Shown here in pieces: positions 6,563 to 62,206 of a stretch of 64,000 nt of DNA. The notes beneath the pieces are model-generated. The model was given only the letters and a program-made list of their open reading frames with translations. It was not told the origin of the DNA and ran no database searches. A program made the translations under genes and the position numbers. The first letter of the stretch is position 1; each line of letters starts with the position of its first letter. Origin of the DNA: an uncultured Oligoflexia bacterium (lineage in GTDB: Bacteria > Bdellovibrionota > UBA1018 > CAYHWW01); contig CAYHWW010000002.1 of assembly GCA_964360145.1 (NCBI GenBank), forward strand, positions 3,473-67,472, read 5' to 3'.

Positions 6563-6636
6563 GCGGGCGTAGCTCAGTTGGCTAGAGCACGAGCTTCCCA
6601 AGCTCGGGGTCGAGGGTTCGAGCCCCTCCGCCCGCT
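6563..6636 (+). tRNA. tRNA-Gly (anticodon CCC)
   Basis: Cloverleaf by eye: 7-bp acceptor GCGGGCG/CGCCCGC, D-arm GCTC...GAGC, anticodon stem CGAGC/GCTCG with loop TTCCCAA, T-arm GAGGG-TTCGAGC-CCCTC, followed by CCA at 6637-6639. Confidence 0.85.
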
Positions 6637-6724
6637 CCATTTATCGCGACGCAAAAACCAGCTTGAAAGACTGATTAAAATAGTCTATTCGGATATCCCT
6701 CAGTTGGTCCAAGCAAGAAGGAGA

Positions 6725-8623
6725 ATGTTCCACGTGGAACATCGTTTTGATGTCATTGTCGTCGGTGCTGGACATGGAGGCTGTGAGGCTGCCCTCGCCG
6801 CGGCGCGCATGGGGGTCCAGGTCTGCCTGTTGACCCTTAACAATGACAGGGTGGGTTACATGTCTTGTAATCCTGCCATCGGCGGCTTGGCCAAGGGCCA
6901 GCTAGTCAAAGAGATTGACGCCATTGGTGGTCAAATGGGTGTCAACACCGACAAGAGCGGCATCATGTTTCGACGTCTCAATGCATCGAAGGGATACGCA
7001 GTTCGATCCAGCCGCGCACAGTGCGACAAGTACCTCTATGCTGCCAACATGAAGCAGGTCATCGAAACAACCCCCGGTGTTGCCCTGCTTCAGAGGGAAG
7101 TGGAATCCATCATTTTAAAGAAGGGACGCGTCACTGGGGTGACGACAACCTGGGGTGAGTCCATCCATGCGCCCACTGTGATTCTCACTACGGGCACATT
7201 TTTGGGAGGTCTCATGCACACTGGCTTCCACCAAGAAAAGGGTGGTCGGGCAGGGGATAGCGCCTCCTATGGACTCACCAAATGGCTGTCGGAACAGGGC
7301 CTTCGATTAAAGCGCCTCAAGACGGGAACGCCCCCCCGCCTCGAACGCAGAACAATCCAGTTTCAAGGACTTGAAGAACAGTGGGGCGATGAGCCTCCGC
7401 GTCCATTCTCTTTCCGCCGCGTGCCCAGCCCTTTCCCCTATATTCAACAGATTAATTGTTGGATCACCCATTCCAATGCTCGAACTCACGAGATTATCGC
7501 AGAGAACTTTGAGTGTTCTCCCATGTTTACAGGTGTCATCAAGGGCTGCGGTCCCCGTTACTGCCCCAGCATTGAAGACAAGGTGAAGCGTTTTGCGGAC
7601 AAGGATCGGCATCAGATTTTCCTGGAACCCGAGGGATTGCAAACGCAGGAAATATACGCCAATGGCTTGAGTACGAGCCTTCCTCTGGATGTACAAATCA
7701 AATTCCTTCGCACAATTCCAGGGCTAGAGAGGGTGGAAGTCTCTCGCCCCGGCTACGCGGTTGAATATGACTGCGTGGACCCCACTCAGCTCTTCCATAC
7801 GCTCGAGACCAAGGACCTTCCTGGACTGTACTGCGCAGGCCAAATCAATGGCACTTCCGGCTATGAGGAGGCAGGAGCCCAGGGTTTGATCGCCGGCATC
7901 AATGCTGCCCAGAGGGTTTTGGGTCGTGAGGAGTACGTACCTCTGCGTACAGAGTCTTACATTGGCGTCATGATCGATGATTTGGTTACGAAGGGGGCTG
8001 ACGAGCCCTATCGGATGTTCACCAGTCGGGCTGAAAGTCGCCTTTTTTTGCGGGAAGACAACGCTGATTTGCGGCTAACAGAGCAAGGTCGGCGCCTGGG
8101 TTTGGTGGATGATGCGTTGTTTGTCGCATTTGAAGAAAAGCGCCAGCAGATTGAGGCCGAGTTAGCACATCTCGACACACACTACTTCTACCCCACCACG
8201 GAGACCAATGAAGGTCTTGCGACCGTGGGTTCAGCACCACTGAAAGATCGGGTTAGTGCTAAAATTCTTCTTCGTCGCCCTGAGATGACTGTTTCACGGA
8301 TGCAAGGCCTAGGCTTTGAACCCAAAAATACTTCCCAAGAGAGTCTTGAGCAGGCTGAAATTAGTGTGAAGTACGAGGGATATGTTAAAAAAGAGACTGA
8401 ACAGCGAGAAAGCTTCGTGCGCAACGAACGCATGCGCATTCCCCTGGAGATTGATTACGGCGCCATCGGCGGACTATCCACCGAGGTGCGGGAACGATTA
8501 AGGCATATTAGGCCTGAAACCATTGGACAAGCTTTGCGGATGCCTGGCTTAACTCCAGCGGCTGTTGCAGCCCTACTCATTTATATCAAGTCGACGAAGG
8601 GGGTTTCTTCCCTTGAACACTGA
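6725..8623 (+). CDS. mnmG: tRNA uridine-5-carboxymethylaminomethyl modification enzyme MnmG (GidA)
   Basis: FAD motif [15 protein letters not shown], full-length MnmG homology. ORF track start 6578 runs through the tRNA; true start is ATG 6725. Confidence 0.95.
6726..6741. promoter_or_regulatory. parS: parS-like centromere site TGTTCCACGTGGAACA (perfect 16-bp palindrome)
   Basis: Matches the chromosomal parS consensus tGTTnCACGTGnAACa with symmetric changes; overlaps the mnmG ATG (6725); identical copy at 9292. Confidence 0.65.
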
Positions 8624-9275
8624 GAAACTCCTTCTCCAGCTCGTCTCGGCAGGGGCTGCCCCTGAGCAGGCCCAGAGGCTTTTGAGTTATGGCGCAAGAC
8701 TCCTGGCCTGGAATGAAAAGATGAATCTAACCGGTGCCAAAGACCTGGACGAGCTTACGCAGAAACACCTCTTGGACTCCGTATTGGCGTGGAAAGTGCG
8801 AAACACAGCGATGGCGGGCGCACTTATATTTGATCAGATCGTAGATGTGGGCTCCGGCGGGGGAATACCGGGTATCCCATTGGCTATTCTGCAGGATAAG
8901 CCCGTGGTGCTGGTGGAGCGTCGTCAGAAAAAGGCCCGTGCATTAGAAGAGCTTGCCATCGAATGTGAGCTTGGTCCGAGAGTAGGCGTTAGGGCCGAGA
9001 GCCTTGAAAAACTCTGTTTTTCTACGCGTTCTGAGTTTTGGTTCCGCGGGGTTCTCCCGGCAGATAAATTAATAAGCTATTTCTCTCGGGAGATACCCTC
9101 TCGAGCCCTCTCTCAGGTGGTTCTCATGAAGGGCCCGGCCTGGGGGGAGGAGCTGCGTCGAGCACTAGAGCAGCCGGACATGGATCACCTCTGGTGTCAG
9201 CGATTTGAGCAGGCTGAAGTTTTTGGTTATGAGTTGCCGGACGGGGCTGGAACTCGGAACCTGGTTCTGCTGTAA
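8565..9275 (+). CDS. rsmG: 16S rRNA (guanine527-N7)-methyltransferase RsmG (GidB)
   Basis: RsmG motifs ([17 protein letters not shown] motif [16 protein letters not shown]); ATG 8565 overlaps mnmG by 59 nt, alternative TTG at 8613 gives a shorter overlap. Confidence 0.85.
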
Positions 9276-9291
9276 GTGTGTGTGGAGTGAA

Positions 9292-9307
9292 TGTTCCACG
9301 TGGAACA
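9292..9307. promoter_or_regulatory. parS: parS-like centromere site TGTTCCACGTGGAACA (second copy)
   Basis: Identical 16-bp palindrome in the rsmG-parA intergenic region. Confidence 0.65.
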
Positions 9308-9418
9308 AGTGGGTGGTCATTGAGTAGTCATGCTGGGTTATGACGACTCTTGGTCAGTCACTCATTGCATTTCAAAAAAATGACTTTAAAGTGGATGAAT
9401 AGACAGAGGGTTTCCGCC

Positions 9419-10243
9419 ATGGGAAAAGTCATAGCCGTCATCAATCAAAAGGGCGGGGTGGGTAAGACTACAACCACAGTGAACCTAGCGGCGGCACTTG
9501 CAGTGGCTGACCGAAGGACGCTCATTCTGGACCTGGACCCACAGGGCAATGCGTCATCGGCGCTGGGCGTGGATCGCGCTCAATACTCAACTAAAAACAT
9601 TTATCACGCCCTTATGGGCATGGTGCCATTGGGCGAGGCCATTGCCCCTACGGAGATCGATCGTCTCTGGGTGGCCCCGAGCAATACAGACCTCGCCGGC
9701 GCGGAGATTGAGTTGGTTTCGGCGTTCGCCAGGGAGAATAAGCTTAAGGCCGCCATTGCGACCATCAAGGATCAATACGATTTCATCTTCATTGATTGTC
9801 CGCCTTCACTGGGGCTGCTTACAGTCAATGCCCTCACTGCGGCCGACAGCTTTCTGGTGCCGCTCCAGTGCGAATACTTTGCCCTCGAGGGCCTCTCTCA
9901 GCTCCTGATCACTGTGCGTCTGATCAAGCAAAGCTTGAACCCCACGCTGGAAGACGAAGGTATCGTGCTCACCATGTTTGATAGTCGGAACAACTTAGCG
10001 CACGAAGTGGTGAAGGAGGTGCGCACGCACTTTGGCGCCAAGGTTTTTGACACGGTTATCCCACGTAACGTGAAGCTGAGTGAGTGCTCGAGTTTTGGTA
10101 AGCCGGTGATCCTCTACGACATCGACTCCAAGGGGAGCATTGCCTATCTCAATATGGCTAAAGAGCTCATCAATCGCACCGTGGGAGTTGAGCATGTGCA
10201 GCTCCTTACGGAAGAGCGCTCATCACCCCATTTAGAGGTTTGA
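9419..10243 (+). CDS. parA: chromosome partitioning ATPase ParA (Soj)
   Basis: Deviant Walker A KGGVGKTTT directly after in-frame ATG 9419 (ORF track start 9350); full Soj/ParA homology. Confidence 0.9.
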   Translation: MGKVIAVINQKGGVGKTTTTVNLAAALAVADRRTLILDLDPQGNASSALGVDRAQYSTKNIYHALMGMVPLGEAIAPTEIDRLWVAPSNTDLAGAEIELVSAFARENKLKAAIATIKDQYDFIFIDCPPSLGLLTVNALTAADSFLVPLQCEYFALEGLSQLLITVRLIKQSLNPTLEDEGIVLTMFDSRNNLAHEVVKEVRTHFGAKVFDTVIPRNVKLSECSSFGKPVILYDIDSKGSIAYLNMAKELINRTVGVEHVQLLTEERSSPHLEV

Positions 10244-10246
10244 GTT

Positions 10247-11215
10247 ATGGAAACAACGAACAGCACGACGAATGCAAATACCGCGAAAGAGCGCCCCGCT
10301 CCGCGCCCTGCCCTGGGCAAGGGCCTCGCCTCCCTGTTCCCCGCCCCGCCCGCCGCCACCGCGGTTGCCCATGAAGTCGCTGAAGCGGCGGCAGGTGCAC
10401 TAGCCAATAAAGATCGTCACATGGGTATTATGATGTGCGCCGTCGAGGACATCGTGCCCAACCAGTTTCAGCCACGTCGTGAGTTTGACGAAGCAACCGT
10501 CGAAGAGTTGGCGCAGTCCATTCGGGAAAATGGCCTCATCCAGCCTCTTGTGGTGCGCAAGGGCGCGAAGGGTTTCCAGCTCATTGCCGGCGAGCGCCGC
10601 CTGCGCGCGGCGAAGCTTGCTGGCCTGAGGCAAGTGCCCATCGTCATTCGTCGATCCACGGACCAAGAGGCGCTGGAGCTGGCTCTCATCGAAAATATTC
10701 AGCGTGAAGACCTGAACTGCATGGACACCGCCCACGCCTATCAACAGCTCATGAGTGAGTTCAGCATGACTCAGGAGGCAGTGTCTCAAAAGGTGGGCAA
10801 GGATCGTGCGACAGTGGCCAATCACTTGCGCCTCTTGCGGCTTCCCGAAAAAATCCGGGCATGGCTTAAAGAGGGAACGATATCTTATGGCCATGGGAAA
10901 ACGCTGGCGGGCCTGATGGATCATCCCGCGGATGCGGAGCGCTTTGCTGAAGAGGCTATAGATCTGCGCTGGTCCGTGCGAGAGCTCGAGCACCGCATTC
11001 AGGCGTGGAAAGACGGTCGGGTCGAGTCGCCGGAGACGCCCGTCGCCGAAGGGCTTACACCCGTGGCTCTGCGCCTTCAGAACGTGAGCAAGGAACTTTC
11101 TCAAAAGTATTCGACCAAAGTAGTTGTAAAGGGTCATGATAGGCGCGGCAAGATCGTGTTGGATTACTACTCCGTCGATGATCTCCATCGCTTGATCGAT
11201 ATGCTCGGTCGTTAG
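10247..11215 (+). CDS. parB: chromosome partitioning protein ParB (Spo0J)
   Basis: ParB box (LIQPLVVR, IAGERRLRAAKLAG), HTH region, N-terminal ParA-interaction-like motif LGKGLASL. Confidence 0.9.
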   Translation: METTNSTTNANTAKERPAPRPALGKGLASLFPAPPAATAVAHEVAEAAAGALANKDRHMGIMMCAVEDIVPNQFQPRREFDEATVEELAQSIRENGLIQPLVVRKGAKGFQLIAGERRLRAAKLAGLRQVPIVIRRSTDQEALELALIENIQREDLNCMDTAHAYQQLMSEFSMTQEAVSQKVGKDRATVANHLRLLRLPEKIRAWLKEGTISYGHGKTLAGLMDHPADAERFAEEAIDLRWSVRELEHRIQAWKDGRVESPETPVAEGLTPVALRLQNVSKELSQKYSTKVVVKGHDRRGKIVLDYYSVDDLHRLIDMLGR

Positions 11216-11225
11216 TGAGGCCCCC

Positions 11226-11627
11226 GTGAAGCGCGTTGACCTGTCCACTAAACTAGAAAATCATAGCATTAGCGGCATCATAGAACAGGGTTGCGAGTTT
11301 GAGGGCAAGCTCTGTTTTGAGGGCACCGTGCGCATCGGTGGGCGCTTCCGCGGCAGCATCATAACAAATGATGTGCTTGTCATTGGTGAGGGTGCCCGGG
11401 TTGAGGGTGATGTGGAGGCCGGCACTGTGATCATCAGTGGTGAAATGGTGGGCGACATTGTGGCCAAGCACCGCGTGGAAATTCACCGTCCCGCGATCTT
11501 CCGCGGCAATATCATGACGCCCAGCTTGATGGTTGATGAGGGCGTGATTTTTGAGGGCAGTTCGCGGATGATTTCTCATCGTCCTGCCGGGGAAAAATCC
11601 TATCTGGGCCGGGTAGAATCGAATTGA
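11226..11627 (+). CDS. bactofilin family cytoskeletal protein
   Basis: Beta-helical repeats (GxVxGDVxAxxVxIxG pattern), about 130 aa, GTG start. Confidence 0.7.
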   Translation: MKRVDLSTKLENHSISGIIEQGCEFEGKLCFEGTVRIGGRFRGSIITNDVLVIGEGARVEGDVEAGTVIISGEMVGDIVAKHRVEIHRPAIFRGNIMTPSLMVDEGVIFEGSSRMISHRPAGEKSYLGRVESN

Positions 11628-11665
11628 CAGTAATTTTTTGTGCGTGCTAGTCCTGCCGTACACTT

Positions 11666-12109
11666 ATGCTCACCGAAATTGCAGCGCAGCTGGGCATCGA
11701 CCAGTCATTTTACGTCCAGTTCATTCTGATTGTAGTTTTCTATCTCCTCGTCAGCAGTCTCTACCTGAAACCATTTCAGCGCCTGCTTGCGTTACGTGAA
11801 GAGCGCACCACCGGCGCTTTGAAAGAGGCTCAGGGGTTGAATCAAAGGGCCGAAGAGCTGCAGGGGCAATACAAGGCGCGCCTTCAGGATCTGCACCAGC
11901 GCACGCGCGGCATACTAAAAAAAGTAGAAGATGAGTCCAAGCTTGATGCCAGTAAGATTCTTGATGCGGCAACTCAAGAAGCGCGGGGAAAAGTACAGGT
12001 GACGCTCAAGGAGCTAGAGCTGCAAAAGGCCTCTCTTTTGAGCGCACTCTCCGCGGACGCCCAACAAATTGCCCAAGAGATTGTAATAAAGGTGCTCAAC
12101 CGAGCCTAG
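11666..12109 (+). CDS. atpF2: F0F1 ATP synthase subunit b' (b-type stator)
   Basis: N-terminal TM helix then long charged coiled coil; first of two tandem b-type genes preceding atpH. Confidence 0.75.
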   Translation: MLTEIAAQLGIDQSFYVQFILIVVFYLLVSSLYLKPFQRLLALREERTTGALKEAQGLNQRAEELQGQYKARLQDLHQRTRGILKKVEDESKLDASKILDAATQEARGKVQVTLKELELQKASLLSALSADAQQIAQEIVIKVLNRA

Positions 12110-12121
12110 TGATGGTGATGA

Positions 12122-12586
12122 ATGAGTGAGCTTTTCGTTCCCGCAGTAAATTTTGCGATGCTCGTCGGCCTTTTGGGCTATTTTGCGTGGCCACCATTCA
12201 AGACGTTCGTTGCCCAACGCCAGGAAGACATCAAAAAACTGTCAGAAGACGCTCGCACTCAGAAGGTTGAAGCGGAGAAGCGCTTGCGAGAGTTTGAAGG
12301 CAAGCTGCGCGCATTTGAGGTGGATGCTGAGAGTCTGCTACGCGCCGCCCAGGCGGATGCTGAGGTCCTGCGCACGAAAATCATCGAGGACGCACGCAAA
12401 CAAGGTGAATACATCCGTAAAGACGCAGAGAGCACCGCGACGGCCAACGTCAATGACTTCCGTGATGAAGTGAGGCGTCAGGTTGTGCGGCTGGCCGTGT
12501 CCGAGGCAGAAAAAAGCATTCGTGCCAATCTTTCCAAGGATGTTCAAAGCAAGATCATCCGCGATTACATGGAGAAAGTCGTATGA
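12122..12586 (+). CDS. atpF: F0F1 ATP synthase subunit b
   Basis: TM helix LVGLLGYFAWPPF then coiled coil; position before delta. Confidence 0.8.
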   Translation: MSELFVPAVNFAMLVGLLGYFAWPPFKTFVAQRQEDIKKLSEDARTQKVEAEKRLREFEGKLRAFEVDAESLLRAAQADAEVLRTKIIEDARKQGEYIRKDAESTATANVNDFRDEVRRQVVRLAVSEAEKSIRANLSKDVQSKIIRDYMEKVV

Positions 12587-13131
12587 AGGCGATCGCCGTC
12601 AGTCGCGCCTACGCAACAGCGCTCTACGAACTGGCTCGTGATCGCAATGAGATCGATGAGGTTCACGACCAGTTGATGGTGTTGGCGCGGGCATGGACAG
12701 ACTCCAAGGATCTGCAGAGAGTGTTCGCCTCCGGCCGCTTTACGGACAAAGAAAAGACGGATCTTACTGGCGCACTATCGGAAAAACTGGGCCTCTCTCC
12801 GTTGGTCTCCCGCTTTTTTTCCCTGGCGACTGAAAAGGCCCGTCTTTCTCTTCTTCCTGAAATGGCATCCGAGTTTCAGGGCCGCATCGATGAGGCCTCT
12901 GGCACATTGCGCGGTACCGTCTTCACCGCGGAAGCTCTTCCCGAAGAGCAAGTGAAAGACTTGGAGCGCGCCTTTTCTCAGCGCTTCAAGAAAATCGTTC
13001 ACTTGGAGCCCCGAGTGAATGGCAGCCTTTTGGGCGGTCTTTTGGTCCGCATCGGCGATCTCTCATTTGACGGCAGTCTCAGAACCACTCTCGAGAACTT
13101 GAAGAACAAACTTGAAAGGCAGTACCCATGA
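12583..13131 (+). CDS. atpH: F0F1 ATP synthase subunit delta (OSCP)
   Basis: OSCP-family N-terminus ([14 protein letters not shown]); operon position. Confidence 0.85.
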
Positions 13132-14639
13132 TCAAAGTGCGCCCAGAGGAAATCACGCAACTCATCAAAAAGCAGCTCTCCGACTTCGAAAGTAAAGTCG
13201 AAGTTTCGGAGACGGGCTCCGTTATCTCCGTCGGCGACGGTGTAGCCAAGGTACACGGCCTTACCAACGTCATGGCGGGCGAGCTGGTGGAGTTTACCGG
13301 TGGCGTAACCGGCATGGTGCTGAACCTTGAAGAACAAAGCGTTGGTATTGCCATCCTCGGCGATGACACCCAGATCAAAGAGGGTGGCACCGTCAAGCGC
13401 ACGAACAAGATCGTGCAGGTCCCCGTTGGTGAAGAGCTGTTGGGGCGCGTGGTCAACGTGCTTGGCGAGCCCATCGACGGCAAGGGTGAAACCCGCGCTA
13501 AGAATTATCGCCGCATTGAGATCAAAGCTCCAGGCATCGTCGCTCGTCAGGGCGTGAAAGAACCCCTGCAAACTGGCATCAAGGCCATCGATGCCATGAT
13601 TCCCATTGGGCGTGGTCAGCGGGAGCTCATCATTGGTGATCGTCAAACGGGTAAGACCGCCATTGCCGTGGACACGATCATCAACCAAAAAGGCAAGGGC
13701 GTGTACTGCTTCTATGTGGCCATCGGCCAGAAGCAATCAACCGTGGCCCAAGTGGTGGACAAGCTCCGCAGTAATGGCGCCATGGAATACACGACGGTGA
13801 TCTGTGCTGGCGCTGCCGACAGGGCCTCATTGCAGTTCCTGGCGCCCTATTCCGGTGTCACCATGGCGGAGTACTTCCGCGATTCAGGGCGCCACGCCCT
13901 CATCGTTTATGATGACTTAACCAAGCAAGCGCAAGCATATCGTCAGCTGTCCCTGTTGCTCCGCCGCCCTCCGGGTCGCGAAGCTTATCCCGGCGACGTA
14001 TTTTATCTGCATTCCCGGCTGTTGGAGCGTGCCGCGAAGCTCAGCGACAAGCTGGGGGGCGGCTCATTAACCGCTCTACCCATCATCGAAACTCAGGCGG
14101 GCGACGTGTCCGCATATATCCCCACCAATGTGATTTCCATCACCGACGGACAGATTTTCCTGGAGTCTGATTTGTTCTACTCCGGTGTTCGTCCGGCAAT
14201 CAATGTGGGTGTTTCCGTGTCTCGGGTCGGTGGCGCAGCTCAAACAAAGGCCATGAAGTCCGTCGCCGGCACACTGCGTCTTGAGCTCGCTCAATATCGC
14301 GAGAAGGCCGCATTCGCCCAGTTTGGAAGCGATCTGGACGCTGCCACACAGAAACAACTGAGCCGCGGCGCAAGGCTTGTGGAAATCCTCAAGCAAGGCC
14401 AGTACTCTCCGGTGCCCTTTGAGCGCCAAGTGGTCATCATATTCGCGGGCACCCACGGACATCTCGATAAATTCGAGACTTCCAGTCTCGACAAATATGA
14501 GAAGGATCTCATGCAGTACCTGGAGACGAAGCACCCCACAGTGCTGAAGAGTATCGAGTCTTCCGGCAAGATCGACGACTCAATCAAGACGTCCTTGGTG
14601 CGCGCACTCCAGGAGTTCGAAACGGTATTCAGCGGGTGA
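13128..14639 (+). CDS. atpA: F0F1 ATP synthase subunit alpha
   Basis: P-loop GDRQTGKT, highly conserved alpha sequence. Confidence 0.97.
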
Positions 14640-14645
14640 TTTGAG

Positions 14646-15524
14646 ATGGCCAGTTCAAAAGACTTACGCAAACGCATTTCGACGGTGAAGAACACGCAGC
14701 AGATCACCAAGGCCATGAAAATGGTGTCTGCCGCGAAGCTGCGCCGCGCTCAGGATGCCATCGTCAGCTTGCGCCCCTATGCCCGCGAGATCCAAGCCAT
14801 CGTGAGTTCCATTGCTCGTTCCACGGAGGCGGCTCACCCACTGATGGATGAGGCTCGTGCGGAGTCCGGTGACAAGGTGCTCGTCGTGGTTGTTACTTCT
14901 GATCGCGGCCTCTGTGGCGCCTTCAATGCCAGCGTCATCAAGGGCGCCATGCGTTACATGCGCACCCATGGCCATAAGTACAAGAAGTTTGAGTTGGGCT
15001 TTGTGGGCCGCAAGGGCTACGAATTTTTCAAGACCCGGACGCCCAACGCTGGTCGCTACTACCAGAACTTCTTTAGCGGCCTGCGGTTCGCCAAGTCTCA
15101 GGCCATGGCTGAAGAGCTAATTGCCCAATATACCGCGGGTGATTTTGATCAGGTCTTCTTCGTCTACAATGAGTTCCAATCAGCGATCTCTCAAAAGGTT
15201 GCGGTGGAGCGTTTTCTCCCCGTGCGCATTGAAGGCGCAGGCACGGAAACAGCGGGGGACCAAAACCCCGTGGCCTATGAGCCCAGTCGTGAAGAGATAC
15301 TAGACATGTTGTTGCCCAAGCACTTCGCTACGCAGATCCACAGGATTTTACTGGAGTCCTTGGCCAGCGAGCATGGTGCGCGCATGTCCGCCATGGAGAA
15401 CGCAACGAAGAATGCCGGTGAGATGATGTTTGCGCTCTCTCTGGAGTACAACAAGACCCGCCAGGGTGGCATCACCAAGGAATTGCTGGAAATCGTTTCG
15501 GGCTCCGAAGCCCAAAAGAATTAA
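14646..15524 (+). CDS. atpG: F0F1 ATP synthase subunit gamma
   Basis: Gamma N-terminal motif (IKNTQQITKAMKMVSAAKLRRAQ), conserved C-terminus. Confidence 0.95.
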   Translation: MASSKDLRKRISTVKNTQQITKAMKMVSAAKLRRAQDAIVSLRPYAREIQAIVSSIARSTEAAHPLMDEARAESGDKVLVVVVTSDRGLCGAFNASVIKGAMRYMRTHGHKYKKFELGFVGRKGYEFFKTRTPNAGRYYQNFFSGLRFAKSQAMAEELIAQYTAGDFDQVFFVYNEFQSAISQKVAVERFLPVRIEGAGTETAGDQNPVAYEPSREEILDMLLPKHFATQIHRILLESLASEHGARMSAMENATKNAGEMMFALSLEYNKTRQGGITKELLEIVSGSEAQKN

Positions 15525-15530
15525 TCATGA

Positions 15531-16969
<1,439 letters not shown>

Positions 16970-16970
<1 letters not shown>

Positions 16971-17389
16971 TGATGCTGACACTGGAAGTTGTTACACCGA
17001 CAAAACGCGTAGTATCCCCCGTGAGAGTGGAAACGGTTACTCTCATGGGTGCCCAGGGCGAGCTTACCATCTTGCCTGGTCATGCTCGTCTGGTGAGCAG
17101 CATGGAAACCGGTGTTCTCCGTTACGAAACCGAGGGCCACAAGGAAAAGCAGACGGCTGTGATCACTAGTGGCTTCGTCGAAGTGAAAAACGACAAGGTG
17201 ACTGTACTAGCCGAGACCATGGAAATGGCCCGCGAGATCGATGTCGAGCGTGCGAAAAAAGCCCAGACAAAGGCGGAAGAGCGCTTGAAGGACAAGGAGC
17301 TGGACCCGGATAGCTTCCGCAAGTATCAACTGAAGCTTCAGCGTGCGCTCATCCGTCAGCAGCTTGCCCGCGAACACAGCAGCTCGTAA
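16970..17389 (+). CDS. atpC: F0F1 ATP synthase subunit epsilon
   Basis: Epsilon beta-sandwich N-domain plus helical C-terminus; operon position. Confidence 0.9.
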
Positions 17390-17408
17390 GGCTTGGTCTT
17401 TTGCCGCC

Positions 17409-17513
17409 TAGCTTCGTTGTCGTCGTCGCCCGCTCCACGCGGCGGGCAGGCAGCCCGCCTTGGTCGCCGGGCTCCTCCTCCGTCTCGCTAGTCGGCAAAA
17501 TACCTTCGCCTTA
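17409..17513. repeat. about 105-bp intergenic repeat unit (single copy) with internal hairpin
   Basis: TAGCTTCGTTGTCGTCGTCGC...CTCCTCCTCCG...CCTTCGCCT is shared with both arms of the inverted pair at 62207-62492; internal stem GGCGGGC/GCCCGCC. Confidence 0.7.
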
Positions 17514-17625
17514 TCTTGGATGCTGGTATTGCCGTGAGGATATCGGAAGTGTGGTGCATGGATTGCCGCACGGCGGCGTGACCGACGCTTGACCCGTTGC
17601 CAGGATGTTTCCAACAACATAGCCT

Positions 17626-20169
17626 ATGAGTAGGCCCCAATTGACTGGGGTTTTGTGCGGTCACGGAGGATCTTTGGCAGTGGTTCGCCCCAGAAAGGTG
17701 CGAAAACAGTCCGCAGTGCGAGCAACGACGTTGCTCTGCGCTGTTGTCGCATCTTACTGTGCTGCCGAGGCGACGCTTCATTGTGCTCAAAACCTCGCAC
17801 GTCAGTGGCTGAAGCCCTCTCTTCCTCTTACTGCATTGAAGGGGCTGCCGCGGGGCAGTGTAGGCTTACGGTCTCCTGAAAGCCCCGCTATGCTCACTGC
17901 GCATTCCATTTCTGTGCGCTCTTACCGAGTGATTCTGCCTCCTGCACCAAGCGAAAGCAGCGTGCCCCTCGTTGGTGCGGAGGTGGACTCTGGCGCGGCC
18001 CAAGGATTTGCTCTTCTCTCGCAGCAGTATGCCGAGGAGACCCAGCGGCTAGCCTACCGCCATCATCTTCTGTCCATGGAATGGCACAGCATTGCCCAGG
18101 CCCATCAAGCGGCCCGGCAGCAGCGTCGCATGGCTCGGAAAGCTCCGACGCAAAAGAGCGAAGAGCCCACTGAGGTGGTTCAAGCCAGTGCGGTTCATAA
18201 GCTGGCCCCATCACTGGAGATGAAAGTAGCATTAGCTGAGAAGCCGCAGCCCAGGGTTAAATCATCGCCGCACCTGAAGCTTGCCATGAACCTTGAGCCA
18301 CTAGCGTCAATGAATACTCAGACTGACCACTCAGTGGATTATCAAGGTCTCTTAAAGAGCCTCGCAATAGGAGAAGCGCCTCAGATCGAAGAGCTACAGC
18401 CGCCACTGGTTGAGGCCGCACCTCCGGCAGCTGAACCGGAGCAACAACAGATCGCAGAAATCCCCGCTGCTCCGGCGGAGTCGGTGACCGCTATTCAAAC
18501 GGTCACCGAAGTGCATGGAACACCCTCTGCATCGAAGGATGCTCTGAATACCCAGCCTGAGCATCCAGTGATGAATACTCAGGAATACGTCGCCCCCCAG
18601 TATGAGGAAGCACGGGTGGATTATGGCAAGGCTGTGGCAGAGAATATCCAAAACTCCGCACCAACTATTATAGAGGCGGGCAATGTTGTTGCTGGTGCCT
18701 CTGCGTCTGAAGAGTCAGCCACCATCCCCATGGTGGTTTCGGCGACACCGACGATTAGCTATCCCATCGTGATGGGCTTAATTGGTCCCCCTGCTCCTGC
18801 CGCTGCGGTCGCAGCGGCAGGAGCAGCAGCACCCCCTCCGGCAGCGCCCACGCCCACTGTAGATGTGGCACAACAAAAGACCACGGAACCGTCCGAAGAA
18901 GATCAAACCATTCTGGGCTTGGATGGCGGCACCCCAAGTCCGCGTAAAACGACGCCCGCCGTGGAAGTTCAACCCCTCCCCGTGGACGGCTTCAGCGCCA
19001 CCATCTCCGAGGCCTTCAGTGGCGGCAGCAGTGCAATCAGTGGCGCCTCAGCGCAAGTGCTCGGCTCACAGCAGGTTGTGCGGAGCGATGGCCGGGGACA
19101 AGCGCACTTCAAGGAAACAGGACTCACCGGCGTCCTTCCCGTCATCATTCGCAAAGAGGGTTACCTCTGGCGCCGTGCGGACTTGCAGCCCAACAGAGAA
19201 ATGTTCGTCGAATTGGTGTCCGAGAACGCCGCCCGCATGGCAGCACTGGCATCCGGCGATGCTCCCCGCGGGGACAGCGCATTCATGTTCATCCAGCTCG
19301 TCGACCCAGAAGGTAAAAACCTGTCTGGCTATACAGCGCGAATCATCAGCGCCGCGTCTCGCGACGCAGGGATATCTCCCCGCTATGTCGATGAGAACGG
19401 GGCGCCGCTCAAAGCGGGCAGCGCGACGAGCTCCCGCGGCCAACTGATTTTCCCCGCAGCGCCCCAGGGGGATTACATCCTTGTGGTAACAGATGCCGCG
19501 GGTCGCGACCGCGCTCCCCACCTGATGCATGTGGGTGCAGGCGAGGGCATCGTTCGAAAAGTGAGTTTGGGTCGCGCAGTGGGGATCCAGGGGCGCATTC
19601 TCAACGGTCAGCTCGCCAATGCCCCCTTCGCGGGCGCCACCGTACTTCTTTTCGGGACTGATGAAAGCGCAGCTACGGCGACCGCGGACAAGAACGGTCG
19701 TTTCAAGTTTTCCGGTCTATATGTAGATTGCGACGATCTGAACTATCTCCAGGTGGAGCGCGAAGGCATATACCGCAATCGGCTGGAGTATTCCTGCGGT
19801 GGCTCCGACTACTACGTGATGCCGAAAACTCGCGTTGACTCCTTGGCGGAGGAGGCGGGGATGGGCCTTAATCCCAACGCAGGCATCATTATTGGGCACG
19901 TCAGCATGGCTTTCAGCACCAAGGTGCAGCTCATCGGTCCCCAAGAGCTGGTGCCCGCCGAGAATCCCCGCGGCTATGACTTCTACTTTGAGAGGGATGG
20001 TATCATCAACCCCGGCCGGGACCGCACCTCACGCAGCGGTAACTTCATCCTCATGGATGCCCCCGGTGAAATGTCGTACATGCAGGTATTCGACAGGGCC
20101 AACAGCACAACCCGTCACATCACCCCGATATTCACCGCGCCGAGCACCGTCAGCGTTATCGTGCGCTGA
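17626..20169 (+). CDS. large hypothetical protein, Pro/Ala/Gln-rich linker region and C-terminal carboxypeptidase-regulatory-like (transthyretin-like) beta-sandwich repeats
   Basis: Long ORF with coding-like codon usage; low-complexity stretch PPAPAAAVAAAGAAAPPPAAPTPT; C-terminal GATVLLFGTDESAATATADKNGRFKFSGLY resembles CarboxypepD_reg repeats; start codon uncertain. Confidence 0.5.
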   Translation: MSRPQLTGVLCGHGGSLAVVRPRKVRKQSAVRATTLLCAVVASYCAAEATLHCAQNLARQWLKPSLPLTALKGLPRGSVGLRSPESPAMLTAHSISVRSYRVILPPAPSESSVPLVGAEVDSGAAQGFALLSQQYAEETQRLAYRHHLLSMEWHSIAQAHQAARQQRRMARKAPTQKSEEPTEVVQASAVHKLAPSLEMKVALAEKPQPRVKSSPHLKLAMNLEPLASMNTQTDHSVDYQGLLKSLAIGEAPQIEELQPPLVEAAPPAAEPEQQQIAEIPAAPAESVTAIQTVTEVHGTPSASKDALNTQPEHPVMNTQEYVAPQYEEARVDYGKAVAENIQNSAPTIIEAGNVVAGASASEESATIPMVVSATPTISYPIVMGLIGPPAPAAAVAAAGAAAPPPAAPTPTVDVAQQKTTEPSEEDQTILGLDGGTPSPRKTTPAVEVQPLPVDGFSATISEAFSGGSSAISGASAQVLGSQQVVRSDGRGQAHFKETGLTGVLPVIIRKEGYLWRRADLQPNREMFVELVSENAARMAALASGDAPRGDSAFMFIQLVDPEGKNLSGYTARIISAASRDAGISPRYVDENGAPLKAGSATSSRGQLIFPAAPQGDYILVVTDAAGRDRAPHLMHVGAGEGIVRKVSLGRAVGIQGRILNGQLANAPFAGATVLLFGTDESAATATADKNGRFKFSGLYVDCDDLNYLQVEREGIYRNRLEYSCGGSDYYVMPKTRVDSLAEEAGMGLNPNAGIIIGHVSMAFSTKVQLIGPQELVPAENPRGYDFYFERDGIINPGRDRTSRSGNFILMDAPGEMSYMQVFDRANSTTRHITPIFTAPSTVSVIVR

Positions 20170-41600: not shown

Positions 41601-42152
41601 GTGAAAATCCAATCAACCCGCTTCGGGGAACTGGACGTCGGTGCTGATGAAGCCATCGAATTTCCAGAGGGGATTCTCGGGTTTGATAAGTTGCGCAGAT
41701 TCTGCTTGGTGGACTCGGGTGATGACACTCTGATTCTCTGGCTGCAATCTTTGGAGAGCCCTGAGATCGCCTTCCCGGTGCTGGAGCCCCGCTTCTTCAA
41801 GAACGACTACGTGGTGCGCCTCTCCGCCCAAGAGCTCCGCCTCTTGAAGCTTGAGAACGTGAACCAGAGCGTGGTTTTCAATATTCTCACCATTCCTAAC
41901 GATGTGGTCCAGATGACCGCCAACGTGAAGGCGCCCATCGTCATTAATCTCAAGGATCAACTGGGCAAGCAGGTCGTGTTGCAGGAAAGCGAATATACCC
42001 TGAAGCAGCTCATGTTTAAGGAGCTGAAGTCCCATCTGGTGACCATCGCTTCCAATCGCGCTGCCTCCGACCAAGCATCAGACAAGGTGGCCACCATAGT
42101 GCCCATCAACCTGCGCCAGATCGTGCCGAGCAGTTTCGTTAAGGCGTTGTAG
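41601..42152 (+). CDS. fliW: flagellar assembly factor FliW
   Basis: FliW homology (FPEGILGFDKLRRFCLVD, NPIVINLKDQLGKQVVL); GTG start. Confidence 0.88.
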   Translation: MKIQSTRFGELDVGADEAIEFPEGILGFDKLRRFCLVDSGDDTLILWLQSLESPEIAFPVLEPRFFKNDYVVRLSAQELRLLKLENVNQSVVFNILTIPNDVVQMTANVKAPIVINLKDQLGKQVVLQESEYTLKQLMFKELKSHLVTIASNRAASDQASDKVATIVPINLRQIVPSSFVKAL

Positions 42153-42184
42153 CGCCAGCGCATCATATGATGCCAAACACAAAG

Positions 42185-42220
42185 CCCCCGCTCTCTTGCA
42201 AGAGCGGGGGCTTGTTTCTT
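42185..42220. terminator. bidirectional Rho-independent terminator
   Basis: GCCCCCGCTC-(8-nt loop)-GAGCGGGGGC, then TTGTTTCTTTC on the + strand and a T-rich run on the - strand; lies between convergent fliW and the 42221-42814 lipoprotein gene. Confidence 0.75.
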
Positions 42221-42814
42221 TCAATCGATGGTTACAGCAGGAACAGCGGAGTCTTCAGCGGGCGTGATGACCGTGATGGAGTCCACTTCCACGTTATCAA
42301 CGCCTTGGAGCGTGACGCTGCCGAGGCCCAGGCTGAGCACAGCGGAGTCGCGGCTTTCGATGCGATCCAGGAACTGATCCACAGCGGCCTCAGATTCACC
42401 GCGCATTTCAGCTTCGAAACGCACAGTGCCGACAGTCATGGACGGATCCACGGCATGTTCGATGGCTACGCCCTCAAAGGAAGCACCATTCAGCGCCAAC
42501 GCACCGAAGCCCGTGGAGGGCAGCGTGATGGCGGCAGTCTTGGGCACGACGATGATGCCACCAGGGCGACCACCGCGACCGCGTCCACCACGAGGGGGGA
42601 CCACGATGACGGGACTGGGAGCAGGACGGTAGTAACCGGGGCGACGGTAGCCAGGGCGACCGTAAACGGGAACGGGACGAACATAAACGGGATTTCGATA
42701 GCCAGGATAGTAACCAGGGCGACGATAGTAATAGCCGCCGCGAACAAAACAACCAGAGAACAGCACTGCGCAGAGCAGCGCGGCAGATAACCTAATAAAC
42801 ATGATACCTCCCAT
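42221..42814 (-). CDS. hypothetical lipoprotein with Gly/Tyr/Arg/Pro-rich repeat region (RPGYY-type)
   Basis: Lipobox LFSGC; repeats YYYRRPGYYPGYRNPVYVRPVPVYGRPGYRRPGYYRP then RGGRGRGGRPGG; C-terminal globular part. Confidence 0.55.
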   Translation of the reverse strand: MGGIMFIRLSAALLCAVLFSGCFVRGGYYYRRPGYYPGYRNPVYVRPVPVYGRPGYRRPGYYRPAPSPVIVVPPRGGRGRGGRPGGIIVVPKTAAITLPSTGFGALALNGASFEGVAIEHAVDPSMTVGTVRFEAEMRGESEAAVDQFLDRIESRDSAVLSLGLGSVTLQGVDNVEVDSITVITPAEDSAVPAVTID

Positions 42815-53535: not shown

Positions 53536-53715
53536 CTCAAAGCTACAAATTGCAATGCCAGGGCCAGGCCTCGATTTGATATTGATTAATAATTTCGACT
53601 AGTTACCGTGGCGACATTCCTCCTCCCCGTCCAAATCCTGACAGGGTGTCTAAAGGAAAGACGGTTTACCCATCCTCGCGGGCAATGTAAGACCCTCTGC
53701 GGAGGGAACAGAATC

Positions 53716-54765
53716 ATGAGACTTTTCGAGAGGATCCGCGCCGAAGGCTACGAACAGGTCGTGTTTTGCCACGACAAAGAAGTGGGCCTCAAGGCCATTG
53801 TGGCGATCCATGATTCTACCCTGGGCCCCGCCGTGGGCGGCTGCCGCATGTATCCTTATGCTTCCGAAGATGCGGCCCTGGAAGACGTGCTCCGTCTTTC
53901 TAAGGGCATGAGTTATAAATCCTCCATCAGTGGTCTCGGTTGGGGTGGCGGTAAAGCCGTCATCATCGGCGATTCAAAAAAAGATAAAACGCCGGGTCTA
54001 CTCCGCCGCTTCGCCCAATTCGTTGACTCCCTGAGCGGTCGTTACATCACCGCCAAAGACGTGGGCATCAGCACGGATGATCTTAAAATCATGCGCGAAG
54101 TGAGCCGCCATGTCCTCGGCATGGATGGAGTGCCCGGTTCCAGTGGCGATCCCTCCGTTTTCACCGGCTGGGGCGTTTATAACGGCATGAAGGCCGCCGC
54201 CGCTCATCTTTGGGGCAGTGACTCTTTGAGGGGCAAGCGCATCGCTGTGCAGGGTTTGGGCAAGGTGAGCACCTATCTCATCACCCACCTGGTGAAAGAG
54301 GGCGCTGAAGTCATTGGTGCCGACGTGGATCGTGACGCCGTGGCCCGGGCCCGGGACGAGTTTGGCGTGAAGATCGTCGATGCCGACCGTATCCTCTTTG
54401 AGGACTGTGACATTCTTTCCCCCAACGCCATGGGCGGCAGCATCACCAAAGACGTGGCGGCTCGCATCAAGTGCAAGATCGTGGCTGGTGGTGCCAACAA
54501 CCAGCTCGCCACCCCGGAAGAGGGCTATGCCCTCATGCAGCGGGGCATCGTTTATGCGCCCGACTACGCCATCAACGCCGGCGGCATCATGAACATCTAC
54601 AATGAAATCGGTGGCTACGACGCGAAGAAGGCTTGGGACCATGTGGCCCAGATCCGTGGCACCGTGGCGCGAATTCTGGAGCGGGCGAAGACGGAGAAGT
54701 TGCCGCCCCACCTCATCGCCGATCGCATGGCCGAGGAGCGCATCGCCAATGGCAAGCGGCGCTGA
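53716..54765 (+). CDS. Glu/Leu/Phe/Val-family amino acid dehydrogenase (leucine dehydrogenase-like)
   Basis: Catalytic Lys region GLGWGGGKAVIIGD, NAD motif GLGKVSTYL; ATG 53716 with GGAGGGA RBS (ORF track 53608). Confidence 0.85.
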   Translation: MRLFERIRAEGYEQVVFCHDKEVGLKAIVAIHDSTLGPAVGGCRMYPYASEDAALEDVLRLSKGMSYKSSISGLGWGGGKAVIIGDSKKDKTPGLLRRFAQFVDSLSGRYITAKDVGISTDDLKIMREVSRHVLGMDGVPGSSGDPSVFTGWGVYNGMKAAAAHLWGSDSLRGKRIAVQGLGKVSTYLITHLVKEGAEVIGADVDRDAVARARDEFGVKIVDADRILFEDCDILSPNAMGGSITKDVAARIKCKIVAGGANNQLATPEEGYALMQRGIVYAPDYAINAGGIMNIYNEIGGYDAKKAWDHVAQIRGTVARILERAKTEKLPPHLIADRMAEERIANGKRR

Positions 54766-55807
54766 TCGGTTCGGCACACATAGAGTAATGGTTCCCCGGG
54801 GTAGCCTGCCGCAGCAGGCACAGAAGCTATCGCCCGCGCTTCCCATCCACGGCAATGAGATGCTCATCGAGGTTGAAGCGCTGAACATTGATTCGGCAAG
54901 CTTCCACCAGATTCGTGAGAGCTGTGGTGGCGACGTGGGGCTCATGGAGCACATGATCCGTGACATCGTGAAAGAGCGGGGCAAGCTGCAGAACCCCGTC
55001 ACTGGCTCCGGTGGCATGCTCATCGGCACCGTGAAAGAGGTGGGCTCGGAGTTTCTCGTGGAGCGTCCGGCATCCGAGCAGGTGGAGGTGGGCGACCGCA
55101 TCGCCACGCTGGTGTCGCTGACTCTGACGCCCCTCGTGATCCGTCGGGTGAAGAAGATCCACCTCGATAAAGACCGGGTGGACATCGAGGGCCACGCTAT
55201 TTTGTTTCAGAGTGGCATTTACAGCAAACTGCCATCGGACATCCCCGATGCGCTGGCACTTGCCATTCTCGACGTGGCGGGCGCCCCGGCCCAGACTCAA
55301 GCTCTATGCAAGCCTGGTCAGACCGTGGTGGTTCTGGGGGGCGCGGGCAAGTCCGGCATCCTTTGTTTATATGAGGCCAAGCGTGCGGTGGGGGCCGGGG
55401 GCCGCGTCATCGGTCTCGACTACAATGAAGCTGCCGCACGGACAATGAAGGGGTTTTCCTTTGTGGATGATGTCGCGGTAAGTGACGCCCGCAACGCCGT
55501 GGCCACCTGGCGCACGGTGAGTGAGCTCACCGGGGGCAAGATGGCCGACGTGGTCATCAACGTCACCAATATCCCCGACACCGAGATGTCCTGCATTCTG
55601 GCAGCTAAGCCCGGGGGGCTGGCGTACTTTTTCAGCATGGCCACGAGCTTTACCAAGGCAGCCCTGGGGGCTGAGGGCGTGGGGGCCCACGTGGAGCTTA
55701 TCATGGGCAACGGATACCGCCCCGGTCATGCCGCGCTTTCCCTCGACATCCTGAGGCAATCGCGGGAGATTCGGGAACTATACGAGCGCAAGTATGGCCC
55801 ATCTTGA
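54749..55807 (+). CDS. kdd: L-erythro-3,5-diaminohexanoate dehydrogenase-like
   Basis: Read as Kdd from length, linkage with kamDE and kce, and a nucleotide-binding-like fold (VVVLGGAGKSGI); exact start uncertain (54749 or 54788). Confidence 0.7.
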   Translation: MASGADRFGTHRVMVPRGSLPQQAQKLSPALPIHGNEMLIEVEALNIDSASFHQIRESCGGDVGLMEHMIRDIVKERGKLQNPVTGSGGMLIGTVKEVGSEFLVERPASEQVEVGDRIATLVSLTLTPLVIRRVKKIHLDKDRVDIEGHAILFQSGIYSKLPSDIPDALALAILDVAGAPAQTQALCKPGQTVVVLGGAGKSGILCLYEAKRAVGAGGRVIGLDYNEAAARTMKGFSFVDDVAVSDARNAVATWRTVSELTGGKMADVVINVTNIPDTEMSCILAAKPGGLAYFFSMATSFTKAALGAEGVGAHVELIMGNGYRPGHAALSLDILRQSREIRELYERKYGPS

Positions 55808-57359
55808 GCTAAAACATCAGACCATCATCGAGTGTCGGCGCTTGGCGAATGAGATCGTCGCCAAGGTGAAGCCCGTTATCGACACACATACTACTGTCAG
55901 CATCGAGCGGGCGTCCCTGCGCCTCATCGGCGTCGAAGGCGCGCTGAGCCGTGAGGGGTTGTCCTACCCACTGGTGAACCACATCGTGGACCAGCTGCGG
56001 GAGGATCGGGCCCTGGCGAGTGGTGCCCTCTACTGGTTTGCCAACGCCATGATGCACACGGGTAAGTCAGTTGAAGACGTGTGCCGTGACATCACCGCGG
56101 GCGAGTTGCGTCTCGGCCAGCAGCCACGATTACCCTTGGCTGAAGTGCGTAAAATCGCCGTCGATCTCTGCCGCAAGGGGCTCGACCGCGTGGCAGCTAA
56201 AAAAGAGCAGCGCAATGTGCTTCGCAAAAAACAGGGCGATCCCTTCGACATGACCTTCCAGGGTAGTCCCCTGATCTATGTCATCGTGGCGACGGGCAAT
56301 ATCTTTGAAGACGTGGCCCAAGGCAAGGCCGCCGCCCGGGCTGGCGCCGAGGCAATCGCCGTCATCCGCAGCACTGCTCAAAGTCTCCTCGACTATGTCC
56401 CCGAGGGCGCGACCACCGAAGGCTTCGGTGGCACCTACGCCACGCAAGAAAACTTTCGCATCATGCGAGCGGCACTGGACGAAGTCGGTGACGAAGTGGG
56501 GCGCTACATCCGCCTCACGAATTATTCCTCCGGGCTTTGCATGTCCGAGATCGCCGCCACGGCGGCGTTGGAGCGCCTGGACTTCCTGTTGAATGACGCC
56601 ATGTACGGCATTCTCTTCCGCGACATCAACATGAAGCGCACTCTCATCGACCAGCACTTCTCGCGTCTCATCATTTCCGCCGCGGATATCGTTATTCATA
56701 CCGGGGAAGATAATTATCTCACCACCGCCGATGCGGTGGAAAATGGCCATCAGGTGCTGGCCTCCCAGTTCATCAATGAACGTTTTGCCGTGAACGCCCA
56801 CATGCGTGAAGAGCAGATGGGCTTGGGCCACGCCGCGGAGATGAACCCCTGGCATCCCAATGTGTTGCTCCTCGAGATTGCCCGGGCGCAGATGACACGG
56901 GATATTTTCCCCAAGGCACCCATTAAGTTCATGCCGCCCACCCGCCACAAGGTCGGCGATATTTTCTTCAGTCACTTGATGGATGCCATGTTCAATCTCG
57001 TGGGATCCCTCACCAACCAGGGCATTCAGCTCCTGGGCATGCCCACCGAGGCCATGCATACGCCTCTGCTCATGGACCGCTGGATGAGTATTAAGAACGC
57101 CAAGTACGTCTTCGGCGCCACGAAAGACCTGGGCAAAGAGATCACTTTCAAAAAAGATGGCGTGATCTCCAAGTGGGCCAATAAAGTATTGGATGACACC
57201 CTGACTCTCCTGCGTCGCATCGAGCGTGACAGCTTATTCAAGGCAATCGAAGAGAAGGCTTTTGCCAACGTGTCCCGCAAACTCGATGGCGGCAAGGGCC
57301 TGGATGGTGTCGTGCTTCGGGACAAAGATTATCTCAACCCTTTCTTTGAGCTCCTATGA
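55794..57359 (+). CDS. kamD: lysine 5,6-aminomutase alpha subunit (PLP-binding)
   Basis: 521 aa; N-terminus HTTVSIERASLRLIGVEGA resembles the KamD sequence as I recall it. Confidence 0.88.
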   Translation: MAHLELKHQTIIECRRLANEIVAKVKPVIDTHTTVSIERASLRLIGVEGALSREGLSYPLVNHIVDQLREDRALASGALYWFANAMMHTGKSVEDVCRDITAGELRLGQQPRLPLAEVRKIAVDLCRKGLDRVAAKKEQRNVLRKKQGDPFDMTFQGSPLIYVIVATGNIFEDVAQGKAAARAGAEAIAVIRSTAQSLLDYVPEGATTEGFGGTYATQENFRIMRAALDEVGDEVGRYIRLTNYSSGLCMSEIAATAALERLDFLLNDAMYGILFRDINMKRTLIDQHFSRLIISAADIVIHTGEDNYLTTADAVENGHQVLASQFINERFAVNAHMREEQMGLGHAAEMNPWHPNVLLLEIARAQMTRDIFPKAPIKFMPPTRHKVGDIFFSHLMDAMFNLVGSLTNQGIQLLGMPTEAMHTPLLMDRWMSIKNAKYVFGATKDLGKEITFKKDGVISKWANKVLDDTLTLLRRIERDSLFKAIEEKAFANVSRKLDGGKGLDGVVLRDKDYLNPFFELL

Positions 57360-59936: not shown

Positions 59937-59969
59937 GTTATTCATGCAAAGGCTCTAAGAGGGGAAATC

Positions 59970-62200: not shown

Positions 62201-62206
62201 GTAGGC

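Follow-up and report, generated by a model that had tools for sequence, protein, structure and literature searches.

The repeat that stands on the stop codon of atpC in an uncultured Oligoflexia bacterium raises the questions of what kind of element it is, why it lies directly at the end of a gene and whether its fold is under selection. The stretch analysed here (the window) comprises 64 kb of contig CAYHWW010000002.1, and all window coordinates refer to this stretch. A sequence-only reading of the same DNA had described a unit of about 105 bp after atpC and two further copies forming an inverted pair. Exactly three copies at two loci, in the places so described, were recovered when the whole window was scanned with a covariance model with the filters off. 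The unit proved to be longer than had been assumed, at 125–129 nt, and its true start lies about 20 nt further upstream, at the atpC stop codon (position 17387), because AGGCTTGGTCTTTTGCCGCC pairs with the 3′ end. Copy A (17387–17513, plus strand, 150.9 bits) has a body at 17389–17511 between TA dinucleotides at 17387–17388 and 17512–17513. Copy B (62202–62325, plus strand, 143.2 bits) has its body at 62204–62323 and TA at 62202–62203 and 62324–62325, and copy C (62371–62494, minus strand, 145 bits) has its body at 62373–62492 and TA at 62493–62494 and 62371–62372. The B–C spacer occupies positions 62326–62370. All three copies scored 143–151 bits on the modelled (sense) strand and 29–41 bits on the reverse strand, which shows that the repeat element is asymmetric.

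Pairwise identity in the three-copy alignment was 76–82%, as compared with an earlier estimate of about 80%. A repeat search of the window returned the direct matches 17389–17450/62203–62264 and 17456–17511/62269–62324, and it placed the arms of the inverted pair at 62201–62328 and 62368–62495 with 39 nt between them; the 39-bp spacer given before therefore stands, but the limits of the pair (formerly 62207–62492) had to be redrawn. Similarly, the pair had been located between ilvA and a lipoprotein gene, and a lipoprotein-like gene does adjoin copy C, but a 62-amino-acid ORF (62012–62200) separates ilvA from copy B. The core words GTTGTCGTCGTCG and GCTCCTCCTCCGCCTCGC were strongly enriched, their observed counts being reached in none of 100 shuffles, and no family of mini-hairpins (GGCTCGCGCC) or solo element ends was present in the window beyond the chance level. 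The six-frame ORFs that run across the elements had already been regarded as spurious, and we agree, since homologues of such ORFs were not found: concatenated six-frame translations of the element gave no match to spurious ORFs over other copies among the protein matches listed, and an exhaustive search of the representative proteins with the B–C read-through frame yielded one weak low-complexity match only. A coding peptide was also ruled out by the spacing of the core, which is not a multiple of three.

Whichever strand is folded, each copy yields a single long hairpin with interruptions (z-scores of −4 to −9.7 as RNA and of −3.2 to −7.2 as DNA). The outermost stem GTAGGC/GCCTAC (GTAAGGC/GCCTTAT in copy A) encloses a 14-bp stem and then an internal loop of about 15 × 15 nt, in which GCUUCGUUGUCGUCGUCG faces CUCCUCCUCCGCCUCGC and a G-C pair is possible at every third position only; further inward follow two short stems and an apical 7-bp stem-loop, which reads GGCGGGC-AGGCA-GCCCGCC in copy A (17441–17459, plus strand) and, as a compensated variant, AGCGCAC-AGGA-GTGCGCT in copy B (62255–62272, plus strand). 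The half-arms alone do not fold (z from +1.4 to −2.3, without a consistent local stem). On the complementary, purine-rich strand the internal loop can be drawn as three tandem G·A/A·G pairs between G-C pairs, and the fold of this antisense strand is predicted to be 7–15 kcal/mol more stable.

Structure prediction combined with covariation analysis, as the sequence-only reading had suggested, gave this long hairpin with compensatory changes on both sides in 13 of 44 pairs when the three copies were aligned together with a strain variant, and 96.6% of the cells were paired. None of 500 shuffles matched the observed covariation and pairing, and slid controls had at most three double-changed pairs. 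The exchange in the apical stem (GGCGGGC/GCCCGCC versus AGCGCAC/GTGCGCT), from which compensation had originally been claimed, was confirmed and accounts for three of the 13 pairs. These data support the earlier view that the hairpin is under selection, as in REP/MITE-like elements, rather than a product of neutral duplication. Compensatory change alone is, however, no proof of a host function, because REPINs show the same pattern, which has been ascribed to selection for replication competence (PMC3116915).

The part of the element that varies least is mostly non-pairing. This core, a block of 18 + 16 nt, consists of GCTTCGTTGTCGTCGTCG opposite TCCTCCTCCGYCTCGC; its 5′ strand lies at 17411–17428 in copy A (GCTTCGTTGTCGTCGTCG, plus strand), at 62225–62242 in copy B (plus strand) and at 62454–62471 in copy C (minus strand), and its 3′ strand at 17473–17488 (TCCTCCTCCGTCTCGC, plus strand; the strain variant L026 carries C for T at 17483), 62286–62301 (plus strand) and 62395–62410 (minus strand), respectively. 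Only one of 34 core positions was variable as compared with 32 of 73 stem positions (Fisher p = 9e-6). That the stems drift by compensation around an unpaired, invariant core argues against a simple homogenization of the two arms and favours sequence-specific recognition of the core.

As to known RNA classes, no Rfam 15 family reached its gathering threshold at the element, only a tRNA scoring in the window; the remaining matches of the element and its relatives were to generic hairpins and miRNA precursors, far below threshold. A terminator scan returned no site at any of the three copies. A canonical intrinsic terminator was ruled out, as no U-run follows the hairpin at any of them. The options left by the sequence-only reading (REP/MITE-like element, terminator or small structured RNA) are narrowed accordingly: MITE-like mobility is best supported, and the canonical terminator is absent at all copies.

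All three copies are flanked by TA and lie in sense orientation to the gene upstream, the local contexts being GTA..TAC, GTA..TAC and GTA..TAT. In copy A, the left TA together with the first base of the body constitutes the atpC stop codon TAA (17387–17389). Copy B begins 1–3 nt past the TAA (62198–62200) of the 62-amino-acid ORF downstream of ilvA, and in copy C, on the minus strand, the TAG stop codon (62492–62494) of the lipoprotein-like gene is made up of TA and the initial G of the body. The B–C spacer probably represents the original intergenic region of about 41 nt between two convergent genes; by our reconstruction, excision of B and C with one TA each would leave a 41-nt spacer and a lipoprotein longer by two residues. 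A target-site duplication is unprovable from the copies of the window alone, because TA also belongs to the palindrome, and the sequence that follows copy A is TAT, not the TAA expected from a duplication of TA.

The window consists of chromosomal core DNA (gidA-gidB-parA-parB-bactofilin, the atp operon, flagellar genes, the glycine cleavage system, and lysine and arginine catabolism), and no transposase, integrase or Y1 protein is encoded within its 64 kb. At 6563–17389 the origin-proximal order is tRNA, gidA, gidB, parA, parB and the bactofilin gene, followed directly by the atp operon, an arrangement that is conserved in relatives at 63–68% AtpC identity (L153, L156). The gene next to copy C (62495–63115, minus strand) encodes a lipoprotein-like product with a signal peptide ending in LAGGC; among 5.8 billion proteins it has no homologue but itself, so that it is an orphan gene through which relatives of the B/C locus cannot be reached. 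Adjoining ilvA, a gene cluster at 53608–60785 resembles a lysine-fermentation-type pathway, with a Glu/Leu-type dehydrogenase, the alpha and the B12-binding beta subunits of lysine 5,6-aminomutase, a MoxR-type AAA ATPase, a VWA protein and a beta-keto acid cleavage enzyme. In the region 41601–42790, fliW is followed by a 207-amino-acid ORF without a Pfam match and by no recognizable csrA; a 92-amino-acid ORF upstream, on the opposite strand, is likewise without a match.

The source is a Bdellovibrionota-like bacterium from Hainich groundwater; contigs from well H52 are 99–100% identical to the window, and the best named AtpC matches have about 50% identity. In a relative with 89% AtpC identity, TGA-GGCTCG-CGCCT-CA is found at the atpC stop codon in place of the element. 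This 11-nt remnant corresponds to 6 + 5 nt of the two ends of the element, can still form a 6-bp hairpin and is followed by homologous downstream sequence, and the site looks as if an older copy had lost its centre, not as if it had never been occupied. The mini-hairpin, TGAGGC-TCGC-GCCTCA, lies on the atpC stop codon at 1918–1933 of L030 and 459–474 of L032, and its outer pairs are changed compensatorily relative to GTAGGC/GCCTAC. Relatives at 63–71% identity have nothing at the atpC site. The sequence immediately after atpC is not conserved with the 89% relative, unlike the region 17540–17680, which corresponds to 1960–2100 of L030 (GGATATCGGAAGTG ... GCCAGGAT ... GGAGGA), lies upstream of a gene with a CarboxypepD_reg domain and probably serves as a promoter or 5′ leader; within it, a small hairpin, AGCCTATGAGTAGGC, is found at 17620–17636.

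Seven independent short-read contigs end inside a copy. In the Hainich contig L159 (3299–3396), the left arm and apical loop of copy C run into unrelated sequence (TGTATGGACCCACCC...) not found in the window, which may reflect either a chimeric assembly at the tip of the hairpin or, in a co-occurring strain, a copy that has been rearranged or truncated. The elements are of practical concern in that they break short-read assemblies and give rise to spurious ORFs.

Relatives were sought beyond this lineage with an exact two-anchor pattern against 185,579 species-representative genomes, which gave 25 loci, and with an 18-mer query against metagenomes, which gave at least 120 loci. Chance expectation for the 24-base two-anchor pattern was about 0.1, and BLAST with the whole element aligned only the anchors in the genomic and metagenomic loci. 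True relatives, having both the core and the architecture, made up 16 of the 25 genomic loci (among them nine in Streptomyces sp. B1866, three in Sporichthyaceae, two in Jatrophihabitantaceae and one in Kribbellaceae) and eight metagenomic loci among the matches listed; in these eight, the 17-nt 3′ core lay where its distance from the query match should place it, even though it was not contained in the query. Related elements were also found on Streptomyces plasmids by blastn with the B1866 unit. The remaining loci (e.g. L003, L006, L007, L010, L048, L127 in an ABC-type gene and L015 in an lspA-like gene) were rejected as low-complexity matches in coding sequence. Copy C had no blastn match in 5,426 E. 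coli genomes, plasmids or phages, the elements of L017 and L088 had none when compared with plasmids, a scan of viral sequences did not find the element, and a search of the literature found no description of this repeat class.

The actinobacterial and metagenomic members have a common plan. A long outer inverted repeat ends in GG(S)GTGTC-like termini, in contrast to the element ends of the window lineage, which read GGCTCGGTC, and outside the terminal repeats lie direct repeats of CTAG or TA (L017, L024, L137, L170, L171, L173, L174 and Streptomyces sp. B1866), with CTAG...CTAG in L017, L024, L137, L170, L171 and L173. Inside, a covarying lower stem ending in ..GC/GC.. is followed by the 5′ core NNCGTTGTC(GTC)nG, a variable apical hairpin of 20–60 nt and the 3′ core (CTC)nCTCCGCCTYGC. 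Among 19 members, 15 of 18 lower-stem pairs were double-changed, with a covariation score of 0.33 as against at most 0.17 in slid controls and with no equal in 500 shuffles. The copies of the window, whose possible isolation the sequence-only reading had weighed against itself, accordingly have relatives in other genomes with further compensatory changes.

The number of core triplets was matched on both strands, being one in L171, two in L170 and L173, and three in most members, and in L045 and L137 a change of UCC to GAC permits Watson–Crick pairs with GUC in the register G-C/U·C/C·U. Both observations indicate that the two strands of the core face each other once the element is folded. In Streptomyces sp. 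B1866, a unit of 230–316 bp is near-identical at at least nine dispersed loci, as would be expected after recent transposition. A search for an autonomous element, with 5′ and 3′ cores 0.3–2.6 kb apart, gave only chance pairs and no ORF-bearing pair among the relative loci retrieved.

The orientation of the copies is biased. All nine copies that lie flush with a stop codon (A, B, C, L017, L008, L022, L019, L005 and L170) are in sense, with the pyrimidine-rich strand in the mRNA, and of the copies between genes of the same direction 11 are in sense versus three in antisense, as judged by approximate, GC3-based strand calls. Antisense copies do exist (L024, L171). The bias is present despite the palindromic target, and either selection acts against antisense copies or those in sense bring some benefit; the former could be explained by GGAGGAGGAG, a strong Shine–Dalgarno mimic that would then directly follow the stop codon. 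As for the strand on which the fold matters, the indications lean in two directions: the predicted energies and a count of stem G·U versus A·C combinations (19 versus 36, from a noisy alignment, and not in favour of the sense strand) lean towards the purine-rich strand, and the orientation bias leans towards the pyrimidine-rich transcript.

Taken together, each copy is best explained as a non-autonomous foldback transposable element (MITE) of a previously unnamed class common to Actinomycetota and this Bdellovibrionota-like groundwater bacterium, a reading to which we assign a probability of roughly 60%. IS630/Tc1-mariner and IS5/IS427-type transposases target TA within CTAG or YTAR and duplicate the target. 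The likeness of the present elements to the insertions of these families lies in the TA within CTAG or YTAR and is drawn from the flanks only, and they differ in that the window and the loci retrieved yielded neither a transposase gene nor any full-length element whose ends match. By which type of transposase, in which order of events and with what RNA function, if any, the elements act we infer as follows. Insertion would take place as DNA at TA within a palindromic NTAN/CTAG target, catalysed in trans by a DDE-type transposase (IS630/Tc1-like or IS5/IS427-like), and the first base of the element (G or A) would restore the stop codon, such that surviving copies would come to lie exactly on stop codons. 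As the stems would need pairing only, they could drift through compensatory change. The GG(S)GTGTC-like termini and the asymmetric loop of about 15 × 15 nt, (GUC)n opposite (CUC)n, are kept constant and would have to be recognized in a folded single-stranded form, either as 3′ UTR RNA or as ssDNA. In the RNA form, the element would be co-transcribed with the upstream gene as an interrupted hairpin of about 55 bp with a pyrimidine-rich bubble and might form a barrier at the 3′ end or be processed there.

The position on stop codons would follow from the base composition of the hosts, because TA and CTAG are scarce in GC-rich genomes (57–72% G+C) except in TAA and TAG stop codons and the element regenerates the stop, which makes insertion there both likely and harmless. 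This provides a simple explanation, for which no function need be assumed, for repeats lying exactly on stop codons in GC-rich genomes, and the flush position of copies A, B and C is presumably not in itself improbable, since short intergenic spaces offer few other TA sites. Membership among MITEs is supported for size, terminal repeats and flanks: the copies of the window are 125–129 nt long and non-coding, and their ends pair as GTAGGC/GCCTAC and further inward. Bacterial MITEs such as ERIC/IRU, Correia/NEMIS and RUP are 100–200 bp long, with terminal inverted repeats, TA termini and long stem-loop transcripts, and RUP has been linked to an IS630-type transposase, IS630-Spn1, and TA targets (PMC2229807). 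The elements described here are like these TA-type MITEs in size, terminal inverted repeats, TA at both ends, intergenic location, presumed co-transcription and long stem-loops; they differ in that they have no sequence similarity to them (no ERIC, REP or BIME match by blastn in the 5,426 E. coli genomes), possess a nearly invariant asymmetric internal loop common to phyla, and sit directly on stop codons. The class is MITE-like, with a conserved structured core common to phyla, and may already be catalogued under the name of an IS family.

Other mobile or neutral origins account for the data less well. To our knowledge, HUH transposons make no target duplication of the TA/CTAG kind, and this weighs on the idea that the repeat is a REPIN-like element moved as ssDNA by a RAYT/HUH tyrosine transposase with the 5′ GTAG and the mismatched bubble as recognition determinants. 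Copies B and C do have GTAG at the 5′ end of both strands, and the core of the purine-rich strand can form tandem G·A pairs in the more stable fold; moreover, compensatory changes are common in the long hairpins of REPINs, which resemble the present element in their conserved parts, compensated spacer stems and conserved mismatch region (PMC3116915, PMC8266576), and RAYTs require GTAG together with a conserved bulge of mismatches, their action on folded ssDNA being strand-specific (PMC8266576). Copy A, however, has GTAA and ATAA instead of GTAG. As a REP, the element would carry GTAG 5′ of a short local hairpin, and GTAG occurs in B and C only, without such a hairpin, as seen from the z-scores of the isolated arms. 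The actinobacterial members have direct repeats of CTAG or TA and GG(S)GTGTC termini without GTAG, and neither a RAYT nor another Y1 transposase is found in the 64-kb window, so that we regard a REPIN-like origin as improbable.

Still further down in likelihood, to the point of being scarcely credible, are neutral duplications, chance palindromes and integron attC-type recombination sites. In its size of about 125 bp, its imperfect palindrome and its location immediately behind ORFs, we take the repeat to resemble attC sites. The ends, however, read GTAGGC...GCCTAC and not RYYYAAC...GTTRRRY, the neighbours are housekeeping genes, B and C form an inverted pair and not an array, and the window contains no integrase; attC was ruled out on these grounds, and a neutral origin is excluded by the covariation and the conserved core.

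Two observations are left unexplained by a DDE-type MITE that is purely selfish, namely the near-invariance across phyla of an internal, non-palindromic core while termini and stems differ, and the sense orientation in nine of nine stop-codon-flush cases. Both count in favour of a rival reading, by which the element would be mainly a structured RNA module of 3′ UTRs selected by the host, with mobility serving only as its means of spread. The bubble (GUCGUCGUCG/CUCCUCCUCC), held open by covarying stems, would then be the binding or cleavage site of a universal factor (for example RNase E, Rho, S1/KH-type proteins or the ribosome) and would set the 3′ end or the stability of the mRNA. From a Gram-negative lineage to several families of Actinobacteria the core hardly changes, with all else varying, the co-varying triplet numbers on its two strands point to a constraint on the folded state, and the covariance model and the orientation of stop-flush copies and of those between same-direction genes likewise favour the sense strand. 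On the other hand, no copy has a U-tract terminator, the antisense, purine-rich strand is predicted to fold more stably, the G·U versus A·C count (noisy as the alignment is) does not favour the sense strand, copies are found in antisense, and the multi-copy, CTAG-flanked, near-identical copies of B1866 look like recent transposition. The element is like 6S-RNA-like 'rod with central bubble' RNAs and intrinsic terminators in its long duplex with a bubble of about 15 × 15 nt and in its place at the 3′ end of genes, and it differs from them in being multi-copy, mobile-looking, without an Rfam match and without a U-tract. On balance, a mainly host-selected RNA module appears unlikely, though less so than a REPIN-like origin.

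The preferred reading of the repeat as a MITE-like foldback element leaves room for a function of its central motif, and such a function is probable, because the motif is nearly unchanged in small repeats of Streptomyces and other Actinobacteria. As a rule, palindromic repeats of small size are confined to one lineage and conserved only at their ends; here, an internal asymmetric bubble motif is constant and the ends and stems diverge. We tentatively propose, as a possibility somewhat ahead of the host-selected RNA module yet well short of an even chance, that the core is a structured cargo module of cross-phylum, stop-codon-targeting foldback elements and belongs to an undescribed motif class, acting either as a mobile 3′-end RNA signal read by a universal machine or as a strand-specific ssDNA recognition structure with tandem G·A pairs. 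In such a module, (GUC)n and (CUC)nCUCCGCCUYGC would be held opposite each other by the covarying stems, with G-C at every third position and matched triplet numbers. Candidate readers are RNase E, Rho and the SD/anti-SD system of the ribosome; the repeated GU|CGU of the core presumably resembles the RN|CNU preference of mycobacterial RNase E. If the motif is functional, the elements would spread a ready-made signal to the ends of genes.

As Streptomyces strains and plasmids carry these elements, they would offer an easy experimental handle if the motif is functional. The apical part of the Streptomyces elements (L001–L025 of B1866 and L170–L175 of the plasmids) harbours a further palindromic repeat of lesser length, CCTCCCCCAGCTACCGCTGGGAGGTGCCCCC; this repeat also stands alone between genes on several Streptomyces plasmids (L172, L175) and is a separate REP-like family. 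On a plasmid of Streptomyces sp. NBC_01296 (L174, 1250–1640), an acyl-carrier-type gene and a polyketide synthase gene are separated by two different members, both in sense and arranged head to tail, with the variant cores CGCGTCGTCGTCG/CCTCCTCCTCCGCCTCGC and CGCGTTCTCGTCGG/CTCCCTCCTCGGCCTTGC.
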